Source: an uncultured Spirochaetota bacterium (GTDB taxonomy: Bacteria > Spirochaetota > Spirochaetia > SZUA-6 > Fen-1364). From it: DNA of 64,000 nt. Positions within the stretch are counted from its first letter, which is position 1. The number at the start of each line of letters is the position of its first letter. This document shows, one piece after another, positions 6,513-50,862 of the stretch. The DNA lies in assembly GCA_963781885.1 (NCBI GenBank), contig CAWAHW010000001.1, positions 192,001-256,000 on the forward strand, given 5' to 3'. The notes under the pieces are model-generated. The model searched no databases and had not been told where the DNA came from. It saw only the letters and a list, made by a program, of their open reading frames with translations. Made by a program: the position numbers and the translations under genes.

Positions 6513-7640
6513 AGAAACTGATTCTCGGCCTCGCAATGGCTGCCCTTTTGATCTCCTGCTCGCCCATTCCCTATGATGCCGGGCTTGCCCGGATCCGCGC
6601 GCGCCGTGGCGAGAATGAACCAGGACAATCCCTCCCTGGTCACCGTGGATTTCAACCACAATATGAGCTCTTCCGAGCAGATTCTTGCCTTCTATCCCCG
6701 GGTCACGGCATCGGGATTCGACTACAGCACGGGATTCGTGCTGACACAGGAAGGCATCGACATCGGGGTCCACGGGGTTGCCGCCAATGCAAGCACGGGC
6801 CTGCTCAGCGGTTTCGGGGACACTTTTCCCACCATTCCCAACCAGGACCCGCTGTACCCGTCCTGGCTTGCCTGGCCGACAAAAGACGTCCCCGGTTCCA
6901 ATGCTTGGCTCTCCCTGCTCACATTCGACTCCCTCGAGCCAGACTTGAACAACCAGGCGATGCAATTCATGGTCCAGCCGGGAAGTCCCCCGCTGTTCTC
7001 GACCGGGACTCAAAGCAAGTTGAGCACCGTGATCGCCCCCATTTTTCCCGGGTACGTCATCGGCGGATCGGTGGATGCAGATACCCTCCCGGGCAACGAC
7101 GACACGTATTGGCTTGCCCGAGATTCCGGGGGCCAGTTCGCCGAGGTCTGGAGCCCGCTCTCGTCCACGGCGCCCGCCTTTGCGCAGCTGCGCTCCTCGG
7201 GCTCGTACACGCTGAGCTTCATTCCCTCTGGAATCGCGCACGTGCAATATTTCTACGATGAGAACCAGGCGGGCGACCCTTTGCGGCAACCCAACGCGAG
7301 CTTCGCATCGTGGAACGATGGCGCGGGCTGGGTCTGCTATCGATGGACGGAAAACCCTCCGGGCTCGTTTCCCTTCGTGAAGATCCCCATCGATCACCGC
7401 GTCGACGCCCTGTTGAGCACCGGGCAGCTCTTTTCCACGGAAGGGGGCACCGGCCGACTGTATAGCCGTGACGGCGATCTTCTTGCAAGCTTTTCGCTGG
7501 GAAATCTGCGGTTCCTCTCGGAGGAGTACGTCGGCGGGCAGCCGCGGATGTACTTCTCCCAGTTCCTGTCCTTCAATCAGCAGACGGGTTTTAACGTGTA
7601 TTGGATTCCCACCGCCTCACTTGCAACGCTGGGAGACTGA
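6509..7640 (+). CDS. Hypothetical lipoprotein (1-nt frameshift near 6590)
   Basis: MKKLILGLAMAALLISC lipobox starts at an ATGA overlap with the upstream gene; the body continues in the 6573..7640 frame. Confidence 0.7.
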
Positions 7641-7657
7641 TCGGGGGAGCGGCGGCC

Positions 7658-10208
7658 CTACTTTGCCGAGATGAGCTTCTGCAGGGACTGCAGGAGACTC
7701 TTCATGCGCGCATCTTTTTCGGCTGAAATCTTCGTGCTGAGCCAGGCATTCTGCGCGTCCGCGCCCTTCTGGTTTGCAAGCCCCGTCATCAGTGTCGCAA
7801 GCTGATCCATCGCGCTGCGGCGTCCGGTGGTGATCCCGTCGGTGGAAAGCTGCGCGTCGTAGCGGTTCACGCGGCCCAGGATGCCGGAGAAGACCTTGTC
7901 CAGCGTCGAGTAGAATCCCTGGCGGCTGCCCCCCGAGGCGAAAAGCGCCTTGCCCTGGTCGTCCTTGAACTTCGCAAGGTTGTCGTCTTCCTGCTTCGCG
8001 TAGGTGATGTAGGCGGCAACAATATCGTTGAAGTCCGCAAGGTTCTTCTGGTCTTCAGCGGAGAGCCCGGTGCCGTTTGCCGCGGCCGTGGGGGTTGCCG
8101 CGCCAGTCGATGCCACCGACGCTTGCGCCGTTTTCAGCGCCTCGGCGGCGCGATCGGCGAGCTGCCTCTGCCGGTCGGCCTCCTGCCGGGCAGCGGCCAG
8201 GTCCGTCGTGAGCCGGGCATTGTCGGCGCCCAGCTTCGTGACCTGTGCCGTGAGGTCGGCGGCCTTCCTGGTGGCCGCATCGAGGTTCTTCTGCAGATCG
8301 GAGGAAGCAGCCGAGGAGGCGCTGGAGGCATTCGCAATGTCCCCGAACCTCTGGTTGAGCGCGCGCAGGAGCGTCGCGCTGTCGGCCTTTGCCCGGGTCC
8401 TGCGTGCTGCCCAGGAGCGCGATGATGCTCTTCTTGACGGCAAGGATCTCCGCGAGCCCCGCGTCGAGCTGCTTCTGCACACCCGCGAGCTGCGCCGTGA
8501 GAGCGCTCACCTGGTCGGTCTCCGCCTTGAGCGCGGCGGCCGCCCCGTCGTTCATCGCGGCCACGCTGTCGGTGATCCCCTTGACGGCGGCGAGGTTCTG
8601 CTGGCTCTGGGGATAGCCCTGGAGGATGCCGAGATACTGCTGGAGCGCGTCGGGATACTGCCCCTGCTTCTGGAGGGCCGCCGCCTGTGTGAGGAGCGGA
8701 GCCGCCGCCTGGGTCTGATCGTTCTGGCTCTTCTGCGCCGTCAGGGACGCGGTTGCGTTGCCGATGTTGGCAAGCGTCGTGGCAAGCCGCGCGGAGGTCT
8801 CGGGGAGGTAGGTGAAGGCATCCCGGTAGGCCTGGAGCGCATCGGGGAGGCGGCCGGCCGCGAATGCCGCCTCGGCGCGCGCGAGGCCGGCATGGAGGGC
8901 GTCCTGCCGCGCGGCCTCCGCGTCGCGCGCCTTGTTCGTGAAATAGGCGTAGCTCTTTGCGACCTCGGGGATTACCGCCAGCGACTGGCCGTACAACGTC
9001 TCCGCGTCGGCCACCTTGCCGGCGCGCAGCAGGGTGTCGGCATTGGCCACCCGGCTGCGGATGTCGGCAAGCTTTCCCGCGGCATCCACGAGCGAGGCGG
9101 TGTCCACCTTGCCCTTGTCGATCTCGTTCTGCACGAGCGTCGTGAGGGAATCCACAATGAAAAGGTCCACGGTGCGCCGCTTGGCGATGCCGGGAAGCGT
9201 TGCAACGTCACTGGAGTTGACATAGGTGGATATCGCCTGGAGGCTCACAAGAGCCTTGGGGTAATTCTTCGCCGCGATGTCCGCCTGCGCGACGCCGTAC
9301 AGACCGGTGATCTGCTGCGTGACGAGGTCTTCCTGCTGCTTCTGGGAAGTGAGCGCCGTGAGCTGCGCCTGCGTCTGCGCCTCTGAGCTTTGCAGCTCTT
9401 TCGTCTTCTGTGCGAGCTGGGTCTGGAGGTCCGCCTCGCGCTGCCGTGAATCCGCGAGCACCTGCTGACGGTCCGCATTCGCCTTGGCGAGGTCTGAGTT
9501 GAATTGGGCCTGCAGATTCTGCAGCGTCGCTTCCGACTTCTTTCGGTCCTCGTCGGCCTGCGCCTTGAAGGCATCGAGCTGCGTGTTGAACGCGGCGTTC
9601 TGCTGCGCCGACAAGTCGTTGAGCTTCTTCTGGATGTCCGCGTCGGAGAGGCCCTGCTTCTGGAGGCGCGCCTTCTCCGCGTCCAGCTCCGCCTGCAGGG
9701 AGGCCTTCAACTGGCTCTCCTTCTCCTGGACCTTGGCGTCCATGTTCGCCTGAAGGTCCTGTCTCTGCTTGTCGATCTGGGAGAGCTGGGTCTGGATCTG
9801 GCTGATCTGGTTGTTCTTCTCCTGGAGCTTCGCGTCGGATTCCTTCTTCACTTCCTCGATCAGCTTGCCTTCCGCGGTGATGGTGCCGGTGTCCTCGCGT
9901 GAGGCCTGGGTCTCACCCCGCTGGAAAAGGAAATAGAAGAGCGCGAGACCTGCGGCAAGGACCACGACCGCGCCGACGATGACCATGACGGGGAAGAGGA
10001 CGCCGCGCTTGGCAGCCTTGACGGCGAACATCTCGGGGCTCACCGCGATGCGGCTGCCGGTTGCCACCTTCTCGATTTCCGCCCGGATCTCCTTCTGCTC
10101 CTCCCGGGTGATGCCCGAGTCGGGATCGAAGGCGAACTCCTCCCGGTCGTCGGGGGCGAAGCCGAGGGCTTTCCTGAGCGTCAGAGCCTTTTCGAGGAGT
10201 CCCAGCAT
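7658..10208 (-). CDS. Single-TM membrane-anchored long coiled-coil/TPR-like protein (frameshift near 8393)
   Basis: TM VLFPVMVIVGAVVVLAAGLALFYFLF followed by Q/K/E/L heptads and helical repeats. 8055..10208 joins 7658..8482 (…QDP|AKADSAT…) by removing one base in a G run. Confidence 0.75.
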
Positions 10209-10273
10209 GCGCGCTTACCCCGATCCGATTCTCGACAGCGGTGCCGCCAATCTTGAATGATGGCCCCGTTCCG

Positions 10274-11929
10274 TCATTTGTGCGTCATCACTTCCACCCC
10301 GTCCCAGGCCTCCGGCGGGGGCGTCTTCGCGTAACCCCTGCTCCTCTCCAGGAGCATCGCGGCGATCGGGTCGCGCGGCATGAGCTTCAGCGCGTCCTTG
10401 AAATACCCCGCGGCCCGGGAGAAGCTCCTGTCATAGTACTCCGCCATGCCAAGATTGTGCAGACCCCACGCCTCCTTCTCCGCGGCGGAGAGGTCTCTCC
10501 GGGCGGTGTAGATCTTCACCCCCTGCTTCTTGCCCTTCACCGCGACGGTGTCGAGCAACCGGCAGGGGACGGACTCCTTGATGGAGCGGTGGAGGCTTTC
10601 CGCGAAAAGCAGGTCCTGGTAATAGGTCTTCGTGAGCCCGGCAAGCCGGGAAGCGAGGTTCACCGGGTCGCCAATGACGGTGTAGCTCATCTTCGTTTCG
10701 GTGCCGATGGTCCCGAACGTGACGAGGCCCCGATTGATGCCGACGCTCACGGAAAAGGGACGGTGGCCCGCCGCGGTGCGGCGTCGGTTGAAATCGCGCA
10801 GCGCCTCGGTCATCTCGATGCCGGCAAGCACCGAGCGCAGCGCGTCGTCCTCCCGCTTGACCGGGGCGCCGAAGAACGCCATGACCGCATCCGTGATGTA
10901 CTTGTCCACCATGCCGCCGCGCGCCTGAATGGTGTCCACCATGGCACGGAAGTACGGCTCCAGGGACTGGACGAGCTCGTCGGGCCGCAGCGCGGTGGAG
11001 ATCTCCGCGTAGTTGGTGATGTGGGAGAACATGACGGAGAGAATGCCTTCGTCGCCGCTTACCTTGCTCTCGTTCGCCTGCACCTGCTTGATGACGTCTT
11101 CGGGCACGTACTGGCGGAAGACCTCCTTTATTTTTCGTTCGCGCATGCGCGACACGGCCGCCTTCAGCGCGTACGCCTTGATCTGCCGGTAGGCCGCGTC
11201 GAGGCCGTCCACCATGATGTTGAATGTCTGCGCGAGCTGACCGATCTCGTCGTGGTATTCCACCACCACCCGCTTCGACAGGTCGTTGGTGGAGATGATG
11301 TCCTGCATGGTCGATGCGACGCGGCGCAGCGGCCGGGTGAGGTAACCGGAAAAAAGCAGCACGAGGATCACCCCGCCCAGGATGGCCGCCGCGAGGATGA
11401 TGCCCGTGCGGATGGCGATCTGGTTCACCTGGTCGTAGAACGCGGCCCGCTCCTCGCTCACCACCATGTACCAGCCAAAGGGATCGAACCAGAAGCCCTG
11501 GGCCACGCGGGCCTTTCCCCCGATGGAGACCGTGACCAGGTCGGCGCTCTTCTTCGCGGCAAGCGCGGAAAGCCGCTGCTGCTCGCCGGGCTGGAGCGTC
11601 ACGTCGCTCGTGCTCATCAGCACGGCGCCATCCGGTCCCGTGGCAAGGATGAGCTCCGTGGCGCTCCGCACGATGCTGCGCGCGTAGCCTTCCACGGCCT
11701 GCTGGGTGGCGGAGACCATCTCGGGTTTACCCGTGAGGTTGTTGTCCACCAGGAGCCGCCACTGGCTCTGTGCCTGGGTCTGCAACTCCTCCGACTTGAA
11801 GCCGAGGAAGTCTTTGGCGATGCGCGTGATCCCGTTGGATGCGGAGAAATAACTGCTCACGCCGGTGAGGGCGAGGGTTGCCACGACCAGGGGCACGACG
11901 ATCAGCACGATTTTCAGCCGTATGCTCAC
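10274..11929 (-). CDS. Membrane class III nucleotidyl cyclase, copy A (2TM-sensor-HAMP-cyclase); C2-like half-site
   Basis: TM-periplasmic-TM-HAMP (DEIGQLAQTFN); cyclase motifs FSHITNY (Asp lost), VDKYITD, YTVIGDPVNLASRL, VKGK. GTG start overlaps the TGA of copy B. Confidence 0.9.
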   Translation of the reverse strand: MSIRLKIVLIVVPLVVATLALTGVSSYFSASNGITRIAKDFLGFKSEELQTQAQSQWRLLVDNNLTGKPEMVSATQQAVEGYARSIVRSATELILATGPDGAVLMSTSDVTLQPGEQQRLSALAAKKSADLVTVSIGGKARVAQGFWFDPFGWYMVVSEERAAFYDQVNQIAIRTGIILAAAILGGVILVLLFSGYLTRPLRRVASTMQDIISTNDLSKRVVVEYHDEIGQLAQTFNIMVDGLDAAYRQIKAYALKAAVSRMRERKIKEVFRQYVPEDVIKQVQANESKVSGDEGILSVMFSHITNYAEISTALRPDELVQSLEPYFRAMVDTIQARGGMVDKYITDAVMAFFGAPVKREDDALRSVLAGIEMTEALRDFNRRRTAAGHRPFSVSVGINRGLVTFGTIGTETKMSYTVIGDPVNLASRLAGLTKTYYQDLLFAESLHRSIKESVPCRLLDTVAVKGKKQGVKIYTARRDLSAAEKEAWGLHNLGMAEYYDRSFSRAAGYFKDALKLMPRDPIAAMLLERSRGYAKTPPPEAWDGVEVMTHK

Positions 11930-13590
11930 GAGGCCCTCGGAAGGTCCATGCCGTTCCAGCTCTCCGGGGGAGGCGATTTTTCGAACCGCGCGCAGCGCTC
12001 CAGGAACATCGCGGCAAGCTCATCCCCCGGCAGGGCCTTCACCACGTCGCGGAAGTACCCCGCGGCGCGGGAGAAGTTCCTGTCGTGGTATTCGGCCATG
12101 CCGAGATTGTGCTGGCCCCAGGCGTCGATCTGCCGCGCGTCGAGCGTCCGGCGCGCCGTGTAGATCTTGATCACCCCCGCGGAGGAGACCGGCACCCAGT
12201 CGAGGAGACGGCAGGGGATCTGGTCATGGACGGAGCGATGGAGGCTCTCCGAGAAGATGAGCGGCTGGTGGTAGATCTTCGTGAGCCCCTCGAAATGCTC
12301 GGCGAGCTCCGCCATGTCGCCGATGACCGTATATTCCTTCTTCTTCTCCGTCCCGATGTTGCCGATGGTCACCATGCCGTAGTTGACCCCGACGCCGATG
12401 CGAAACTCCGGCATGCCCGCCGCCTTCTGCCCGACGTTGAAGCCGTCCAACGCCTCGATCATCTCCACGCCCGCACGCACCGATTCCAGCGCGAAGCTCG
12501 ATTTCGCGGCCGGATCCGCCTGCGCGCCGAAGAATGCCTTGATGGCATCGCCGATGTATTTGTCCACGATGCCGTCGCGCTTCATGATGATCGCCACCAT
12601 GGTGTCGAAGTAGCGGTTGAGGGAATGCACGAGCTCGTCGGGCTTCATGCTCTCGGAGATCGTCGTGAAGCTGCGGATATCGGAGAAAAGCACGGAAAGC
12701 ACGCGGTTGTCGCCGACCAGGGTGTCCTCGGGGTTGGCGAAGTACTGGTGGATGACATGCTCGGGCACGAACTTGCCGAACAGGGTCTGCGTGCGCTTCT
12801 CCTGCCTCTGTGCCACGACTGCCTTGAACGCGAATCCCTTGATCTGCCGATAGGCCTCGTTCAGGCGCTCGATCATGAGGTTGAAGGTCTGGGCGAGCTG
12901 TCCGATCTCGTCGTCGTATTCGACGACCACCCGCGCGGAGAGATCGTTCGTGGAGATGATGTCCCGCATCGTCTTCATCACCCGCCGCAGCGGCCGCGTG
13001 AGGTAGCCGGCAAAGACGAGCACCAGGAGCACGCCGATGAGGATGGAACCGGCCAGGATGATGCCCGTGCGCACGGCGATCTGGTTCACCTGGTCGTAGA
13101 ACGCGGCGCGCTCCTCGCTCACGACCACGTACCAACCGAAGGGATCGAACCAGAACGGCTTCGCCACGCGCGAGGCTCCGCCGATGGAGATATTCACGAG
13201 GTCCGTGCTTTTTGCCGCCGCCAGGGCGGCGAGTGACTGCTGCTCACCGGCCTGGTAGGAGACCGGCGAGCTGCTCATCGCGAGCGTGCCATCCGCGGTG
13301 ACCGCGACGATGAGCTCCGTGCGGCTGCGCACGATGCTGCGGGCATAACCTTCCACGGCGGCCTTTGTCGCCGCCACCATCTCCGGCTTGCCGGTGAGAT
13401 TGTTGTCCACGAGCAGGCGCCACTGGCTTTCGGCCTGGTTCTGCAGCTCGAGCGCCTTGAAACCGAGGAACTCTTTTGCGATGCGGGTGATGCCGTTGGA
13501 TGCGGAGAAATAGCTGCTCACCCCCGTGAGGGCGAGGGTGGCGACGATCAGGGGCACGACGATGAGGATGATCTTGAGACGGATGCTCAT
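11926..13590 (-). CDS. Membrane class III nucleotidyl cyclase, copy B (2TM-sensor-HAMP-cyclase); C1-like half-site
   Basis: Paralog of copy A; FSDIRSFT and DKYIGD are intact; YTVIGDMAELAEHF lacks Asn/Arg; KGK is replaced by VSSAG. Confidence 0.9.
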   Translation of the reverse strand: MSIRLKIILIVVPLIVATLALTGVSSYFSASNGITRIAKEFLGFKALELQNQAESQWRLLVDNNLTGKPEMVAATKAAVEGYARSIVRSRTELIVAVTADGTLAMSSSPVSYQAGEQQSLAALAAAKSTDLVNISIGGASRVAKPFWFDPFGWYVVVSEERAAFYDQVNQIAVRTGIILAGSILIGVLLVLVFAGYLTRPLRRVMKTMRDIISTNDLSARVVVEYDDEIGQLAQTFNLMIERLNEAYRQIKGFAFKAVVAQRQEKRTQTLFGKFVPEHVIHQYFANPEDTLVGDNRVLSVLFSDIRSFTTISESMKPDELVHSLNRYFDTMVAIIMKRDGIVDKYIGDAIKAFFGAQADPAAKSSFALESVRAGVEMIEALDGFNVGQKAAGMPEFRIGVGVNYGMVTIGNIGTEKKKEYTVIGDMAELAEHFEGLTKIYHQPLIFSESLHRSVHDQIPCRLLDWVPVSSAGVIKIYTARRTLDARQIDAWGQHNLGMAEYHDRNFSRAAGYFRDVVKALPGDELAAMFLERCARFEKSPPPESWNGMDLPRAS

Positions 13591-13758
13591 AGACGATACT
13601 CACAATTTCGGCACATCGAAGGCAAAGGTGGAGGCGCGCCCATCCCGGATAAAAATACCCGCGCTGTCGCGGGCGCGCAAGGGCTGGCGCGGGCGCCGGC
13701 GGACCTTGCGCGATTCCCCTTCCCGGGCCATCATGGCTCGCCCGGAAAGGATGGTGCC

Positions 13759-16700
13759 ATGCGTGCGCGCCCGATCGTCCTGACACTCGCAATGCTGGTC
13801 GTCTTCGACCTGACGGCACGCGTGAACGCCGCCGACCGTATTGCCTTCACGCCGCCCGTGGTCTCATCCGAACCGACGGGTCTCGCCGCAACCGTGGGTG
13901 ACATCATCGATCGCGCAACGGAGCTGATGGCCAGGGTCTATGCGCCGAGCTTCACGGTGCAGGCGGACGCGCGTCAGGCCGACTATGCCGCGGCCACCAT
14001 CGCCACGCAGGACAAGGAAACACTCACGATCGTCGTCTCCCTGAAGCGCGCGTCGGACGCCTCGACGACCCCCACGCTGGTCTGGAACGGACCCGAGACG
14101 CCGGATACGCCGCTCTGGCTCGCCCGCGCGGTCTTCCTGCTGTGGAGCTCCTTCCATGGTTTCCTCGCCGACCAGAAGGGCGCGCCCCCGGTCTTCGTCG
14201 ACGAGCTGCCCGTGACGGCGGTGAATCCGCTCGCCACGCCGCTGGGCATCGCCGTCACTCCGTCCGGCACCATCGGCGCCGCGCTCGCGCTGACCTGTGT
14301 GGAGCTCGACAGCACCTTCCGCCTGATGAGCGAGCCGGGCAGGTCGCTCGCGGAGCGCGCGACACCGATCTATATCGGCAGCGTGGCGACCACGCCCGGG
14401 GGTTCGTTCCTCATGAAGCCGAGCACCGGTCGCGACCTCTACCGGCTGCAGCCCGGCGCCGCCGCTCCCCAGCGCATGCCGACCGGCATGGAGCTTTCCA
14501 CCACGTTTTACTGGGCGGCGTACCCCGACGGCAGCGCCCTCCTCATCGACGCCATGAATCACAAGGCCTGGCGCGTGGCCCCGGGCAACAAGCGCCAGGA
14601 GGTTCCGCTCTTCAGCTCGCCCAACTCGTACCCGACCGCTTATGCAATCGGTCCCGAGGGATCTATCTGGGTCTACGACCCGCTCCTTCGCGGCGTGCAC
14701 GTCTACACGGGCGAAGGCAAGCCGCTGGACATCGTGCTTCCCCTGGCCGATCCGTCGACTGCCGTTGCCGCCACCTCCATGGACGTGGGCCCGGACGGCA
14801 GCTTCATCCTGTTCGCGAACAAGACCCTCACGAAGTACCGGCGCGACGGCCGTCTGGTCTGGTCGCTCACGACGCTCGAAGGCTCCGAAGAGCCCGACAT
14901 GCCGGCCACGGCAAGCATCGCGGTGGACTGGTCGCGCGGGCTGATCTACCTCTGCGACGTGCTCGGGAGGCGCATCGTGAAGCTGCTCGACCGCGACGAG
15001 GCTGCCGCGCGCGGCGCGCACGACGATTTCGAGGAAAGGCTGATCGCGCTGCGCGCGGCCGGGCCGGGCGAGGAAGCGCAGGAGGCGGCGGTGGCGAGGC
15101 TCTATGCCGCCGCGGACTCGCCGATCATGGCAAAGACGTGGTGGCAGAAGGTGGCCGACGCGGACCCCGACGACGCCGAGGCCGCGGCGCAGCTTCAGGC
15201 CATCGAGGTGGCGGATCTGCGGACCGCCGCGCAGGCGCTGGACGCCAGCGCGCGCGCCACCCTCGCCACAATCGGCATTGAAACCGCGCGCCTGAGCTAC
15301 ATGCAGGCGATACAGAAGTACGAGCTTCTGCTGAGCAAGGCGCCGGCGGACGAGCAGGCGCGGACGGCGATGAACGCCCTGAAAGACCTGTTCAGCGAAA
15401 ACGGTCAGGGCGCCGTCCCGCAGAAGCCCCTCACCGTGGGCGACATGAAAATTGCCAATCTTTTTCCTTCGCTCATGCAGTGGTACGGGTCGCATCCGCC
15501 CGGCACCGTGACGGTGTCCAACCCGCTTGCCGACCCGGTGGAGAAGGTGCAGGTGAGCTTCTTCATCCCTCAATTCATGGACCTGCCGGTGGAGTCACGG
15601 ACGGTCCCGCGGCTCGGCCCGGGGGAGAGTGCGTCATTCAACCTGGCGCCGGCCTTCAACCAGAAGGTCCTCGAGCTGCAGGAGGACATGACGACGCAGG
15701 TGCAGGTGACGGTGAGCTGGACGGCAGCAGGCGCCGCGCAGTCCACGACCCGCACCGGCAGCGCCACGATCTACCGCAATACCGCCCTCACCTGGACCGA
15801 CACGCGCAAGATCGCCTCCTTCATCACGCCCAACGAATCCACCGTGAGCGGTTTTGCCGCGCGTGTCTTGGCGTCCAGCGACACCGCTCCCCCCGCATTC
15901 CTTTCCAAGACGATATTCCAGGCCATGCGCATCTGCGATGCGGTTGGCGCCTACGGCATCGCCTATGTCCCGGATCCCGATTCCCCCTTCTCCAAGGCCC
16001 TCGGCAAGGCGGAGATCGTGGACACGGTGCGTTTCCCCCGTGTCACGCTCTACAACAGGACGGGCGACTGCGACGATACCACCGCGCTGCTCTGCTCGCT
16101 CTTGGAATCCGCCGGCGTGCGCACGGCGATCCTCACCACGCCGGGCCACATCTTTCTTGCATTCGACACCGGCGAGCCGGGGAGAATGCCCCCTACCTCA
16201 CGGGCGGCGCCTACGAAGCCATGACGCGGGCCGGGGAGGCGTGGATCCCCGTCGAAACGACCATCCTGTCGCAGGGCTTCATGGCGGCGTGGGCATCGGC
16301 ATCGGACCTCGTGCGGAAATACGGCCAGACGGACGGCTTCGAGTTCATCCCCGTGGCAGGCATGCGCGACGCGTATCCCGCGCTGCCGCTTCCGCCCAGC
16401 GCCCTCACCGTCGCGGAGCCGGGACGCTCGAGCGTGGACCATGCCTACGCCGCGTCGCTTGCCGGCTTCACCGATACCCTGTACACCGGCAGGCTTGGCA
16501 GCTTGAATACATCGCTTGCATCCCTCTCCGGCAGCGCGGCGGTCAAGGCGAGGGTGCAGATCGGAATCCTCGACGCTCTTTTCGGGAAGCTGCCGGAAGC
16601 GGAAGTCTCTTTCCGTAAGGCCATTGCCGATGAACCGGCCATGGTGTCGCCATACGTGAACCTGGCGAACGTCCGGATCCTGTCGCACGATCAGGCCGGA

Positions 16701-16970
16701 GCACTCCAGGCGGTGCAACAGGGCCTTTCGAAAAACGCCGGTTCGGCGCTCCTCAATCTGCTCGCGGCGCGCATCTACTCCGACAAGGGGGACACGGCGA
16801 GCACGAGCACCTTTTTCGCAAAGGCAGTGAAGGCAGCTCCCGACCTTGCCGCGCGCTACGCCGCCATGGTGCCGGGCCTTGCGGCAGCCGCCCGGGGTGG
16901 AGATTCCGGCATTCAGCGCGCCGCGCAGGCGGATGCATCGCCTGCGGTCCTGTGGGGAACCGATCAATAG
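13759..16970 (+). CDS. Large exported protein: NHL-like beta-propeller, TPR, Ig-like and transglutaminase-like domains (frameshift near 16180)
   Basis: Signal peptide; NHL-like repeats (GIAVTPSG, YAIGPEGSIWVYD, IAVDWSRGLIYLCD); motifs TGDCDD, PGHIF, WIPVETT; C-terminal TPRs in the 15480..16970 frame. Confidence 0.75.
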
Positions 16971-49773: not shown

Positions 49774-50862
49774 ATGAATACCCGACCGATCGTACGCGAG
49801 CTCGACGCGCTGATGGCGAAAAACGCCGATGCCTACTACCCCGGCAAGACGCTGGCAGACTGGTTCTCGGCCGCGGGAGACCTCGAGCTCTGGCGGATCA
49901 ATACGCATGCCCTGGCGGCGACGCTCAGCGTGGACCGCACCCGGCTCCTGACGACGTTCGTCCGGCTCGTGAAGGACGGGGTGCTGGACCTCAACTGGGA
50001 CTACCATTGCACTGAATGCAATGCGGTGGCAGGCTCCCATCGGCATTTGAGCGAAGCAACCGCGGGCAATCACTGCCCCCTGTGCAACGTGGATTTCCGC
50101 AACACGCTGGACCGGAACGTCGAGGTGACGTTCACCCCTGCTGTGCGGCTGTGGTCGGTCTCCAAGGGATTCCTCGCGGAGCAGACCCGGCAGACCGTCG
50201 AGCTTCATGCAAAGAAGGCCATCAGGCTCCCCGCGACATTCGTGTCCGGCATGGATTGCCTCCACGTCCCTCTCTTCCGCGAGATATTCGAGACGGAGAC
50301 CCTCTCCTTCCGGGAAAGCCTGCAGGTGGGCCAGGTCTGCATCATGTTCACCGACATCAAGGGCTCCACGGCCCTGTACGAGAAGCGCGGCGATTCCGCG
50401 GCCTACGGGCTGATCCGGGACCATTTCGACATCCTCTTCCGTATGGTCGAGCAGAACGACGGCGTCATCGTCAAGACGATCGGCGACTCCGTGATGGCCT
50501 CCTTCAAGAGGCCGGTCGACGGCGTGGCGGCGGCTCTTGCGATCCAGAAGGCATTCGCCGCGTTCAACCGGCGCGAGAATCTCCGCGACCAGATACTCGT
50601 GAAGATCGGCCTGCACGCGGGCGCCACCATCATGGTGAATCTCAACAATCGGCTGGACTATTTCGGACAGGTCGTCAATATCGCCGCGCGGATCCAGGGC
50701 ACCGCGGAAGGCGGCGACATCGTGATCTCCTCCGAGATCCGCAAGGACCCCGCGTCCGTCCAGCGCATGCGGGGCGCGGTCAGGGGTCTCGCGAAGCGCT
50801 TTGAAAACCTCAAGGGAATCACCGAAGCGAAGGAGGTCTACAGCCTCACGTTCGCTTCCTGA
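49774..50862 (+). CDS. Soluble class III adenylate cyclase with N-terminal double-CxxC (DUF5939-like) domain
   Basis: CTEC and CPLC; MFTDIKGST, VKTIGD, DYFGQVVNIAARI, LKG - a full catalytic set. Confidence 0.9.
   Translation: MNTRPIVRELDALMAKNADAYYPGKTLADWFSAAGDLELWRINTHALAATLSVDRTRLLTTFVRLVKDGVLDLNWDYHCTECNAVAGSHRHLSEATAGNHCPLCNVDFRNTLDRNVEVTFTPAVRLWSVSKGFLAEQTRQTVELHAKKAIRLPATFVSGMDCLHVPLFREIFETETLSFRESLQVGQVCIMFTDIKGSTALYEKRGDSAAYGLIRDHFDILFRMVEQNDGVIVKTIGDSVMASFKRPVDGVAAALAIQKAFAAFNRRENLRDQILVKIGLHAGATIMVNLNNRLDYFGQVVNIAARIQGTAEGGDIVISSEIRKDPASVQRMRGAVRGLAKRFENLKGITEAKEVYSLTFAS

Follow-up and report, generated by a model that had tools for sequence, protein, structure and literature searches.

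Genes A and B of the window (the whole 64,000-nucleotide stretch of DNA that was analysed) probably encode the paired subunits of a single class IIIb adenylyl cyclase of receptor type, which would work solely as an A:B heterodimer. The active sites of class III enzymes span the dimer interface, with one subunit supplying the two metal-binding aspartates and the phosphate loop, and the other supplying the base-specifying Lys/Thr, the transition-state Asn/Arg and the Lys of the KGK motif. As B is limited to the first set of residues and A to the second, one complete ATP site would be formed per heterodimer, from B D304/D348 together with A K343/T417/N424/R428/K465. A second, non-catalytic pseudo-site would be composed of A H303/T346/D347 and B K344/T421/E428/E431/H432. 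The two chains are expected to pair with each other with the mixed dimer alone being active, and the Lys/Thr pair predicts cAMP as the product.

Gene layout and domains

Both genes are on the minus strand and B is therefore the upstream gene of the pair (Table 1). The junction reads ...GCC TCG TGA at the end of B and GTG AGC ATA at the start of A, and the resulting GTGA overlap represents translational coupling, through which the two proteins would be co-translated. The positions, motifs and overlap reported for the two genes in the first-pass annotation were all found to be correct by comparison with the ORF list, the alignments and a codon check.

Table 1. Features of the A/B locus, given as positions in the window.
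Feature	Position	Strand	Details
Gene B (P0002)	11926..13590	-	554 aa, ATG start; ORF list
Gene A (P0001)	10274..11929	-	551 aa, GTG start; ORF list
B stop/A start overlap GTGA	11926..11929	-	TGA of B over GTG of A
HAMP of B, residues 193-245	12856..13014	-	Pfam 48.9 bits, cut-off 25
HAMP of A, residues 193-243	11201..11353	-	Pfam 46 bits, cut-off 25
Cyclase domain of B, Pfam-matched residues 298-436	12283..12699	-	Guanylate_cyc 59.3 bits
Cyclase domain of A, residues 297-474	10508..11041	-	Guanylate_cyc 65.1 bits
B D304 (GAT)	12679..12681	-	First metal-binding Asp, in FSDIRSFT, kept
B D348 (GAT)	12547..12549	-	Second metal-binding Asp, in DKYIGD, kept
B E428-L-A-E431-H432	12295..12309	-	In place of canonical N-L-A-S-R
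B S469-S470-A471	12178..12186	-	At KGK position of A and canonical relatives; gamma-phosphate Lys gone
A H303 (CAC)	11021..11023	-	Replaces first metal-binding Asp, in FSHITNYA; phosphate loop altered
A T346-D347	10889..10894	-	ITD for IGD; second Asp retained, Gly lost
A K343	10901..10903	-	Substrate-specifying Lys
A T417	10679..10681	-	Second substrate-specifying residue
A N424-L-A-S-R428	10646..10660	-	Transition-state Asn and Arg retained
A K465-G-K467	10529..10537	-	VKGK, retained
Downstream neighbour	7658..10208	-	Membrane-anchored long coiled-coil/TPR protein, 66 nt after A, conserved
Divergent upstream neighbour	13759..16970	+	No family match, TPR-like C-terminus, conserved

The two proteins share the same layout of TM1, periplasmic domain (approximately 145 aa in B), TM2, HAMP, linker, class III cyclase domain and TPR-like tail, with hydrophobic stretches at residues 5-27 and 173-195 (read by eye from the sequence). 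An extracytoplasmic domain between two TM segments, with HAMP and the cyclase domain following in that order, is the arrangement of a 2-TM/HAMP receptor adenylyl cyclase, and in such a receptor a periplasmic signal would be passed through HAMP and the linker helices to the catalytic dimer. The periplasmic part itself gave a weak single-Cache lead (score 0.90). Both proteins are class III nucleotidyl cyclases by their matches to Guanylate_cyc (PF00211; curated cut-off 21.9 bits) and by their top PDB matches, which are to class III cyclases and reach E-values as low as 1e-32. The profile match of B ends at position 139 of 183, where its motifs are lost, and the cyclase fold runs on to about residue 480. 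Class IIIb is defined by a Thr replacing the substrate-specifying Asp, and T417 of A and T421 of B are both aligned to such a Thr in CyaB 3r5g ('...dyTiiG...'). The sensor halves had been described as near-identical, which overstates an identity of 78.8% over residues 1-250; identity is 40% in the linker (residues 251-295), 55% in the cyclase domain, 55% in the tail and 65% overall.

Complementary catalytic residues

Catalytic positions were mapped by HMMER alignment to CyaB 3r5g, Cya2 2w01/6fht and OaPAC 5x4u/4yus, and the mapped residues in A and B were verified codon by codon. In addition to the two Asp residues, B retains the phosphate loop, K344, G347 and T421, and has lost both the transition-state Asn (now E428) and Arg (now H432). 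Judged by these residues, B is a C1-like subunit in which the metal-binding half is intact and the transition-state half is gone, and A is a C2-like subunit in which the first metal Asp has become His and the Lys, Thr, Asn, Arg and KGK are intact. Neither chain carries all six canonical residues (two Asp, Lys, Asp/Thr, Asn and Arg), and the two together hold exactly one full catalytic set, with complementary residues on two domains as is the case in heterodimeric class III cyclases. The first-pass annotation had credited the specificity Lys/Thr to A, where both are indeed kept, but B keeps them too; likewise, it was right that the metal half of A is altered (His for the first Asp and TD for GD), but the second Asp is still there.

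A complex model of the C-terminal halves of A and B had an ipSAE of 0.69 (0.71, 0.69 and 0.68 in separate runs), against 0.00 for the best control; this mark was attained by 58 of the 80 solved complexes and by 2 of the 110 mismatched pairs. The runs agreed in at least 91% of contacts with a partner pLDDT of at least 84, and the modelled interface has A residues 417 and 423-424 facing B residues 345-347. It should be noted that this score reflects resemblance to class III dimers of known structure and, as these include homodimers, it does not tell A:B from A:A or B:B.

Conservation and selection in A-type and B-type proteins

We compared the 58 best matches to the C-terminal half of A (62-90% identity) and the 54 best matches to that of B (62-91% identity), both groups being chosen by rank and not by motif. 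His was found at the first-Asp position in all 58 of the A matches, as were the Lys, Thr, Asn, Arg and KGK Lys (each 58/58), while A's own phosphate-loop Thr position holds seven residue types (A, S, E, D, P, G and R) and the Gly before the second Asp has been lost. All 54 of the best B matches have both Asp residues, the phosphate-loop Phe and Thr, and the Lys after the second Asp. The Asn position is always acidic amongst them (D in 33 and E in 21) and Glu is invariant three residues further on (54/54). The Arg position is mostly His (47/54) and is Arg itself in a single case, the KGK position is occupied by 14 different residues, and the substrate Lys is replaced by Asn in five and the Thr by Ser in four of the 54 proteins. 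The reciprocal breakage of the catalytic motifs first seen in the window is thus real and is conserved in the best 58 A and best 54 B matches, and on this pattern each protein is constrained in only that half which a single shared site would need. Nei-Gojobori dN/dS ratios for the cyclase domain plus tail were 0.13-0.24 for A (four orthologue pairs) and 0.12-0.35 for B (five orthologue pairs), which indicates purifying selection on both genes.

Some findings count against a plain heterodimer model, one being that A still has five of the six canonical residues, along with the second Asp. As His is able to bind metals, an A homodimer may be active in its own right. A could then be a self-sufficient homodimeric cyclase with a His303 and Asp347 metal site, perhaps for Mn or another transition metal, and B an inert paralog which modulates it, for example by forming mixed dimers of lower activity or as the sensor of a second signal. 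The Lys, Thr, Asn, Arg, KGK and second Asp retained in A would all be explained in this way, as would a first-position His which is invariant (58/58) and not variable, His being a good metal ligand in general chemistry. However, a role for B as modulator only leaves its 54/54 Asp, Phe and Thr residues unexplained when the Lys, Thr, Arg and KGK positions drift, and the free phosphate-loop Thr position and lost Gly in A point to a disused metal/phosphate half-site. Other class III cyclases reportedly lose their activity when these Asp are replaced, and we consider a self-sufficient A to be improbable. Another is that the replacement residues are conserved and not random, which simple loss would not predict; the pseudo-site, or the proteins themselves, may do more than the plain heterodimer model says. 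A further one is that the source genome encodes 13 other class III domains, which are conceivable partners of A or B.

Origin of the pair and its genomic context

In all five genomes with a readable flank, the gene immediately upstream of the A-type gene is of B type, with junctions of GTGA in G000 and G005, ATGA in G018 and G017, and a 21-nt spacer in G004. For 12 pairs of A and B matches the longest contigs were equally long, and two of the twelve pairs were each confirmed to lie on one and the same contig (L014 and L015). A single fully canonical gene with the same two flanking genes was found at this locus in seven relatives (G024, G007, G006, G016, G008, G020 and G012), so that both the adjacent reciprocal pairs and the single intact gene which the first-pass annotation proposed looking for in related genomes were recovered. 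The closest canonical relatives of A share 59-63% identity with it, and each has the D, K, G, D, T, N, R and K in one chain. A maximum likelihood (ML) tree placed the A clade (support of 100) as sister to the B clade (99), with a support of 98 for this relationship and with the canonical genes adjoining. The conserved upstream neighbour indicates that the pair locus is orthologous to the single-gene loci of the relatives. The best reading of these comparisons is that one canonical gene at this locus was duplicated in tandem and that its copies, A and B, then underwent reciprocal loss (subfunctionalisation). As judged from the same comparisons, the pair arose recently and locally, in a single group of Spirochaetia, from a canonical gene of the homodimer type.

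Besides A and B, the 15 class III domains of the source genome might include other partners, and each protein could complement one of these or pair promiscuously; complementation between mutant cyclases has been engineered, as with mutants of Rv1625c. We regard this as very unlikely, as A and B are sister proteins with sensor/HAMP halves that are 79% identical, they are adjacent in 5/5 readable cases and mostly translationally coupled, and the identities of their orthologues to the window copies drop in parallel, while the next-closest paralog in the source genome shows only 36% identity over the cyclase half.

The downstream coiled-coil/TPR gene is kept beside almost every family member, including the canonical single-gene relatives. 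It would fit some structural complex, and as neither A nor B has a full catalytic set, both could be pseudo-enzymes which have ceased to make cyclic nucleotide and serve as a receptor, as a scaffold or as a sensor that binds nucleotides, perhaps with this coiled-coil neighbour. Nonetheless, the retention of exactly one full set between the two proteins across dozens of sequences is hard to understand without catalysis, and as the canonical relatives have the same neighbours, these provide no argument for a non-catalytic role, which we think quite unlikely.

We note that the downstream neighbour is present in the window as two overlapping ORFs (8055-10208 and 7658-8482) where G005 has a single frame, and that the upstream neighbour is also split into two overlapping ORFs. 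Both look frameshifted relative to G005 and the assembly may hold indel errors, which raises the question of whether the motif changes are themselves sequencing or assembly errors, or A and B decaying pseudogenes. We give this practically no weight, as the substitutions extend over several codons within open full-length frames and recur in 58 and 54 independent database clusters, and the dN/dS ratios (0.12-0.35) are those of genes under constraint. Sequencing error as the cause of the motif changes is refuted by the recurrence of the substitutions in database sequences and related genomes, in agreement with the first-pass annotation, and all parts of its interpretation that sequence analysis could address were borne out.

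Two further tandem pairs differ in their residues. In G021 (junction ATGA), the upstream gene has lost the Arg alone, which has become Glu, and the downstream gene has lost both Asp residues, while in G022 the His-type gene is upstream and its downstream partner has lost the Lys, Thr, Asn, Arg and Lys with both Asp kept. These suggest that the same logic arose independently with other substitutions. The B-type genes of G018 and G021 are frameshifted in their assemblies, which makes both pairs less clean examples. In G005, a contig end also carries a B-like gene in which the Asn stretch is canonical; this contig end may be chimeric, or the gene may be a canonical variant.

Comparison with known cyclases

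The division of labour between B and A is the same as that between C1 and C2 of the mammalian membrane adenylyl cyclases, which also have one catalytic and one degenerate site, the latter being the forskolin site. The mammalian structures 1cjk and 1azs (AC5 C1 with AC2 C2) are among the PDB matches of B, the best stretch of which matches the C1 part of AC5, AC9 and AC8, whilst the weak matches of A are to AC9 in the C2 part (chain residues 1145-1249) and to AC8 and AC5 in their C1 parts. However, the mammalian enzymes are single chains with 12 TM segments, and here there are two genes, each encoding a full receptor chain with a 2-TM sensor and a HAMP of its own; separate ORFs of 551 and 554 aa do not provide both domains and two 6-TM bundles in one polypeptide. 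Furthermore, mammalian membrane cyclases are class IIIa (Asp) and the A/B pair is class IIIb (Thr), and the dead positions are filled by different residues. The pair appears to resemble the mammalian membrane cyclases in its working and is not a member of that group.

The convergence on a eukaryotic architecture proposed in the first-pass annotation is therefore a fair description of the division of labour, but the gene structure is nearer to that of the two-gene soluble guanylyl cyclase alpha/beta. This and other eukaryotic two-gene pairs consist of paralogous products which form an obligate heterodimer with one active and one pseudo-site. Soluble guanylyl cyclase differs in being eukaryotic, cytosolic, regulated by haem/NO and using GTP, whereas A and B are bacterial membrane receptors in which the Lys/Thr pair points to ATP as the substrate.

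Canonical bacterial 2-TM/HAMP class III cyclases have the same HAMP and PF00211 architecture as A and B, but as homodimers they carry all six residues in each chain and form two symmetric sites, whereas neither chain of the A/B pair is complete. In an engineered case reportedly described by Guo and colleagues in 2001, a metal-Asp mutant and a transition-state mutant of Rv1625c restored one active site as a mixed dimer, which demonstrates the principle for a bacterial cyclase. Those were laboratory mutants of one gene, whereas the complementation between A and B would be natural, fixed in two genes and conserved in the lineage. The chytrid rhodopsin cyclases RGC1 and RGC2 are described as keeping all known cyclisation residues, with heterodimerisation thought to be based elsewhere (PMC8815786), and differ from the A/B pair, which rests on the complementation of missing residues. 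Reviews portray the class III cyclases of bacteria as homodimeric, with two equivalent productive centres, and attribute the asymmetric C1/C2 design to duplication and fusion in early eukaryotes (PMC9552081).

The second site

The first-pass annotation treated the second site as simply dead, but its replacement residues are conserved and the site may have taken on a new role. We tentatively suggest, as a possibility that we hold to be well short of probable, that this site is a rebuilt pocket and not a ruin. Its parts could be the invariant His at the first-Asp position and the second Asp of A, and the invariant acid at the Asn position, the invariant Glu at +3 and the mostly His residue at the Arg position of B. 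Two His and three carboxylates across the interface could make up a divalent metal or small-ligand site, or a direct polar lock. If so, the pocket would be present in the A:B dimer only and would favour A:B over B:B, in which acidic residues would oppose one another. It could also regulate the single active site as a bacterial counterpart of the eukaryotic forskolin/allosteric site, and bacteria would on this view have arrived at C1/C2-type cyclases more than once, given the differing residue solutions of the G021 and G022 pairs.

Significance

We found no description in the literature of a natural two-gene, half-site adenylyl cyclase pair in bacteria. Both genes are called 'adenylate cyclase' in the source databases, though neither should be active alone. 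The A/B locus suggests that the asymmetric single-site design can be reached naturally in bacteria without fusion, and the intact single-gene state persists at the same locus in close relatives. This makes it a young and tractable model for how a symmetric enzyme turns into an obligate heterodimer, as well as for the use of a freed pseudo-site and for the way in which two sensor chains may drive one catalytic centre.

Tandem cyclase genes with complementary catalytic residues

The ORF and junction sequences confirmed the proposal of the first-pass annotation that A and B are tandem full-length paralogs coupled by a GTGA overlap, in which the TGA stop of B shares bases with the GTG start of A. 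HAMP and class III cyclase (PF00211) domains were recognised by Pfam in both proteins above the curated cut-offs, with the PF00211 match of B stopping at profile position 139 of 183, and hydrophobic helices can be read off the sequence at residues 5–27 and 173–195 in each. The stretch of ~145 residues between the helices, the putative periplasmic sensor domain, is without a family match (there is a weak single-Cache lead, 0.90), and the C-terminal part of both proteins runs from the HAMP domain through a ~45-residue linker and the cyclase domain to a 70-residue tail which, in A, gives a sub-threshold Pfam match to TPR. A and B are 65% identical overall, with 78.8% identity over residues 1–250, so that the earlier description of the N-terminal halves as near-identical was overstated, and 55% over both the cyclase domain and the tail. 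The linker (residues 251–295) is the most diverged segment, with 40% identity and many type-specific substitutions.

A promoter and terminator scan of positions 7400–14000 was uninformative: it gave one promoter-like site against 0.6 expected, and neither the B/A junction nor the stretch from A to the downstream gene holds a convincing terminator. A look-up of public sequencing runs that might reveal expression or co-transcription of the locus returned none, and likewise no RNA data set. We note that a GC-rich hairpin followed by a T-run is found ~70 nt upstream of the B start codon, and this could either terminate a transcript that begins farther upstream or form a structured leader.

Features of the A/B locus, catalytic residues and associated loci (window positions unless stated otherwise)
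Feature	Position	Strand	Description
Gene A	10274-11929	minus	Full-length ORF, 551 aa, GTG start, downstream member
A H303	11021-11023	minus	Within FSHITNYA
A K343, T346, D347			Within DKYITD
A T417, N424-L-A-S-R428, K465-G-K			Present
Gene B	11926-13590	minus	Full-length ORF, 554 aa, ATG start, upstream member
B D304	12679-12681	minus	Within FSDIRSFT
B K344, G347, D348			Within DKYIGD
B T421			Present
B E428-L-A-E431-H432			At the site of N-L-A-S-R in relatives
B S-S-A			At the site of K-G-K in relatives
Hairpin and T-run	13657-13677	minus	Strand of B
Coiled-coil/TPR gene	7658-10208	minus	Just downstream of A; overlapping ORFs 8055-10208 and 7658-8482
Divergent upstream gene	13759-16970	plus	Overlapping ORFs 13759-16224 and 15480-16970
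Further class III cyclase domain	50323-50742	plus	G000:C1:242323-242742; 78.5 bits, open frame of 367 aa
Partial B-like gene of G005 (L041)	3-1301 of G005:C116:1-4500	minus	Stops at contig end

In a class III active site, one subunit contributes two Asp residues and the phosphate loop, and these act together with a Lys, a Thr or Asp, an Asn, an Arg and the KGK Lys contributed by the second subunit. We set the residue positions of A and B by aligning them with HMMER to class III cyclases of solved structure (CyaB 3r5g, Cya2 2w01/6fht and OaPAC 5x4u/4yus) and also checked the catalytic residues at the codon level, and the reciprocally broken motifs described earlier proved right in every checkable detail. 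Under the cross-subunit rule, the mapped residues mean that B could supply just the first half-site and A just the second.

Conservation of the two residue patterns

The C-terminal halves of A and B were searched against a large protein collection and the matches then classified, with the A and B groups defined by search rank so that the counted feature did not define them. The A group consisted of the 58 best matches (62–90% identity), which rank ahead of the first canonical sequence, and the B group of the 54 best matches (62–91% identity). All 58 of the best A matches have His at the first-Asp position, and the second Asp, Lys, Thr, Asn, Arg and KGK Lys are each retained in 58/58; the residue before the second Asp, canonically Gly, is Thr in 55, Asn in two and Ser in one, and the phosphate-loop Thr position holds seven residue types. 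Among the 54 best B matches, both Asp residues and the phosphate-loop Phe and Thr are retained throughout and the Asn position is always acidic (Asp in 33, Glu in 21), with the Arg position occupied by His in 47, another residue in six and Arg in one, and the KGK Lys position by 14 residue types. Lys is replaced by Asn in five of these B matches and Thr by Ser in four, and the Met after the second Asp has become Lys in 54/54. From these counts, each protein is constrained precisely in the half needed by one shared site and relaxed elsewhere. Both genes are under purifying selection, with Nei-Gojobori dN/dS values for the cyclase domain plus tail of 0.13–0.24 for A (four orthologue pairs) and 0.12–0.35 for B (five pairs), although the values for the more distant pairs are rough because dS is ~1 or >1 there.

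Distribution and origin of the A/B pair

We searched 41 spirochaetal genomes, the compared relatives being metagenome-assembled genomes of uncultured Spirochaetota/Spirochaetia, and found the 550-aa cyclase family in 39, mostly in multiple copies. Thirty of the 50 non-redundant ORF matches classified, which came from 40 regions, were fully canonical (D, K, G, D, T, N, R and K in one chain). A-type genes, having the residue pattern of A, occur in at least nine of the 21 searched genomes of the window's genus (its own genome G000 plus G005, G018, G017, G004, G019, G010, G011 and G009). In all five genomes with a readable upstream flank a B-type gene lies directly upstream, joined by GTGA (the window and G005), ATGA (G018 and G017) or a 21-nt spacer (G004); in the other four the flank is interrupted by a contig end or frameshift-scrambled. 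The B-type gene of G011 runs to one contig end and its A-type gene begins at another, and 12 A/B match pairs have equal longest-contig sizes, two of which were each confirmed to share a contig (regions L014 and L015).

Upstream of the A/B pair is a divergently transcribed gene and downstream, on the same strand as the pair, a coiled-coil/TPR gene. Seven relatives (G024, G007, G006, G016, G008, G020 and G012) have these two genes on either side of one cyclase gene that is fully canonical. In the maximum-likelihood (ML) tree the A clade (support 100) is sister to the B clade (99; sister node 98), and together they adjoin the canonical genes of those seven relatives. The shared flanks and the tree are the signature left when an intact gene duplicates in tandem and its copies then lose reciprocal residues, and they support the subfunctionalisation after duplication that had been proposed, with related genomes yielding both of the arrangements that had been sought, adjacent reciprocal pairs and single intact genes.

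We rejected gene conversion as the reason for the more similar N-terminal halves, as the synonymous divergence of A from B is similar for the two halves (dS of 0.77 and 0.71). With conversion ruled out, the greater similarity of the sensor halves reflects stronger constraint (dN/dS between A and B of 0.20 for the N-terminal half vs 0.57 for the C-terminal half).

It should be noted that a further G005 locus (L041) encodes the first 433 residues of the B orthologue of G005 (92% identity to B), beside the same upstream neighbour as B has. The last ~33 residues resemble a canonical paralog, with the Asn kept, and the C-terminal piece of B on another G005 contig (L002) has the B-type motif across the same stretch. 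The end of the L041 gene is explained either by chimeric assembly at the contig end or by a canonical variant carried in the G005 population.

Neighbouring genes

The product of the gene that follows A is a long, membrane-anchored coiled-coil/TPR protein. This gene is split in the window, with the matching stretches found in one frame (~845 aa) in G005, and the split reflects either a frameshift or an indel in the assembly. A homologue is found downstream of nearly every family member, canonical or otherwise, which is why we regard this protein as probably a functional partner of the cyclases. The divergent upstream gene has a TPR-like C-terminus and is otherwise without a family match, and it too is split in the window and matched contiguously in G005. 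Pfam searches of both neighbours gave nothing beyond weak TPR matches. That two neighbouring genes look frameshifted suggests indel errors in the window's assembly; the frames of A and B are intact. The window also contains another class III cyclase domain, one of 15 in the 4.64-Mb G000 genome.

Other complementary pairs

Two further tandem pairs follow the same complementary logic with other residues (L034, G021:C1:88000-98500; L040, G022:C400:1-4064). In G021, which belongs to another genus, the upstream gene has both Asp residues, and its one loss is the Arg, replaced by Glu; in the assembly, a frameshift and a stop codon interrupt this gene. The downstream gene, joined to it by ATGA, has lost both Asp and has the Lys, Thr, Asn, Arg and Lys. 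In G022, from a third genus, the gene order is reversed, with a His-type but otherwise intact upstream gene and a downstream gene in which both Asp are present and the Lys, Thr, Asn, Arg and Lys are lost. Eight database clusters (P0059-P0067) have Asn replaced by Asp alone, retaining the Arg and KGK. In six others (P0181, P0182, P0185, P0192, P0200 and P0211), Tyr or His stands in place of the second metal Asp and Glu in place of the Gly, with the first Asp unreplaced. The first eight group with the G021 upstream gene in the FastTree analysis and P0200 joins the G021 downstream gene, and the two sets of clusters may together represent both partners of another lineage of pairs. A scan based on P0181, made to find the partner of this second A-like type, gave no additional gene context for it but recovered 79 further spirochaete loci with 80 family matches, of which 71 were fully canonical, eight differed at the KGK Lys alone and one, ending at a contig end, had the second Asp replaced. 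On this sample, complementary pairs are limited to a few lineages.

Both ML and FastTree trees placed the three kinds of pairs apart, each adjoining canonical genes, but some of the separating branches have modest support and the G022 sequences form long branches. A repeated origin of complementary pairs is suggested by this placement, but one clade uniting every A-like gene (p = 0.09), or every member of a pair (p = 0.44), was compatible with the AU tests. The reversed G022 order could also have arisen through a duplicated array followed by loss, and on these grounds we do not claim convergence.

Structural model and proposed mechanism

We modelled the complex of the C-terminal halves of A and B using a separate alignment for each, and obtained a score of 0.69 (runs of 0.71, 0.69 and 0.68) against 0.00 for the best control; that mark was attained by 58/80 solved complexes and 2/110 mismatched pairs. 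The runs agreed in at least 91% of contacts, with partner pLDDT of at least 84. In the model the chains meet head to tail, as is usual for cyclase dimers, and the linker helices also pair. Within this interface A 343–346 contacts B 344–348 and A 417 and 423–424 contact B 345–347, placing the Thr and Asn of A beside the second Asp of B; B 427–428 are likewise in the interface. As solved dimers of this fold exist, the result indicates likeness to those dimers and not a mutual preference of A and B.

We consider it quite probable that A and B form an obligate heterodimer, and the earlier interpretation to this effect is supported as far as sequence analysis goes. One coupled message would yield two receptor chains in equal amounts, which would dimerise via the TM, HAMP and linker helices as well as the cyclase domains, with the linker a candidate for pairing specificity. 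The A:B dimer would have one complete ATP site, made up of D304, D348 and the phosphate loop of B with K343, T417, N424, R428 and K465 of A, plus one non-catalytic pseudo-site, and the Lys/Thr pair predicts cAMP as the product. An A:A dimer would lack the first metal Asp in both sites, and a B:B dimer would lack the Asn, Arg and KGK Lys in both.

The pseudo-site residues are also conserved, namely the His of A and, in B, the acidic residue, Glu, His and the Lys that follows the second Asp. Plain decay does not explain this conservation, and we take it as the lead for a more speculative reading, in which the pseudo-site would be a rebuilt inter-subunit site.

Comparison with known cyclases

The division of labour in A/B is the same as in the mammalian C1/C2 enzymes, and the two-gene form is the same as in soluble guanylyl cyclase alpha/beta. 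Eukaryotic class III cyclases are described as widely forming heterodimers by complementation (PMC8815786; PMC3591389). Bacterial class III enzymes are described as homodimers with two productive centres, and the asymmetric design is derived from duplication and fusion in early eukaryotes (PMC9552081). We set aside Rhodospirillum centenum gcyB and gcyC as a precedent, as they are called “putative guanylyl cyclase subunits” at one point and “non-catalytic subunits” at another (PMC4681086), and we saw no evidence of a reciprocal class III pair. A search of largely open-access full texts found no natural bacterial heterodimeric class III cyclase. A/B would be a bacterial form of the class III heterodimer with one active site, a two-gene, receptor-type system of recent evolutionary origin whose single-gene ancestor state is still preserved in relatives.
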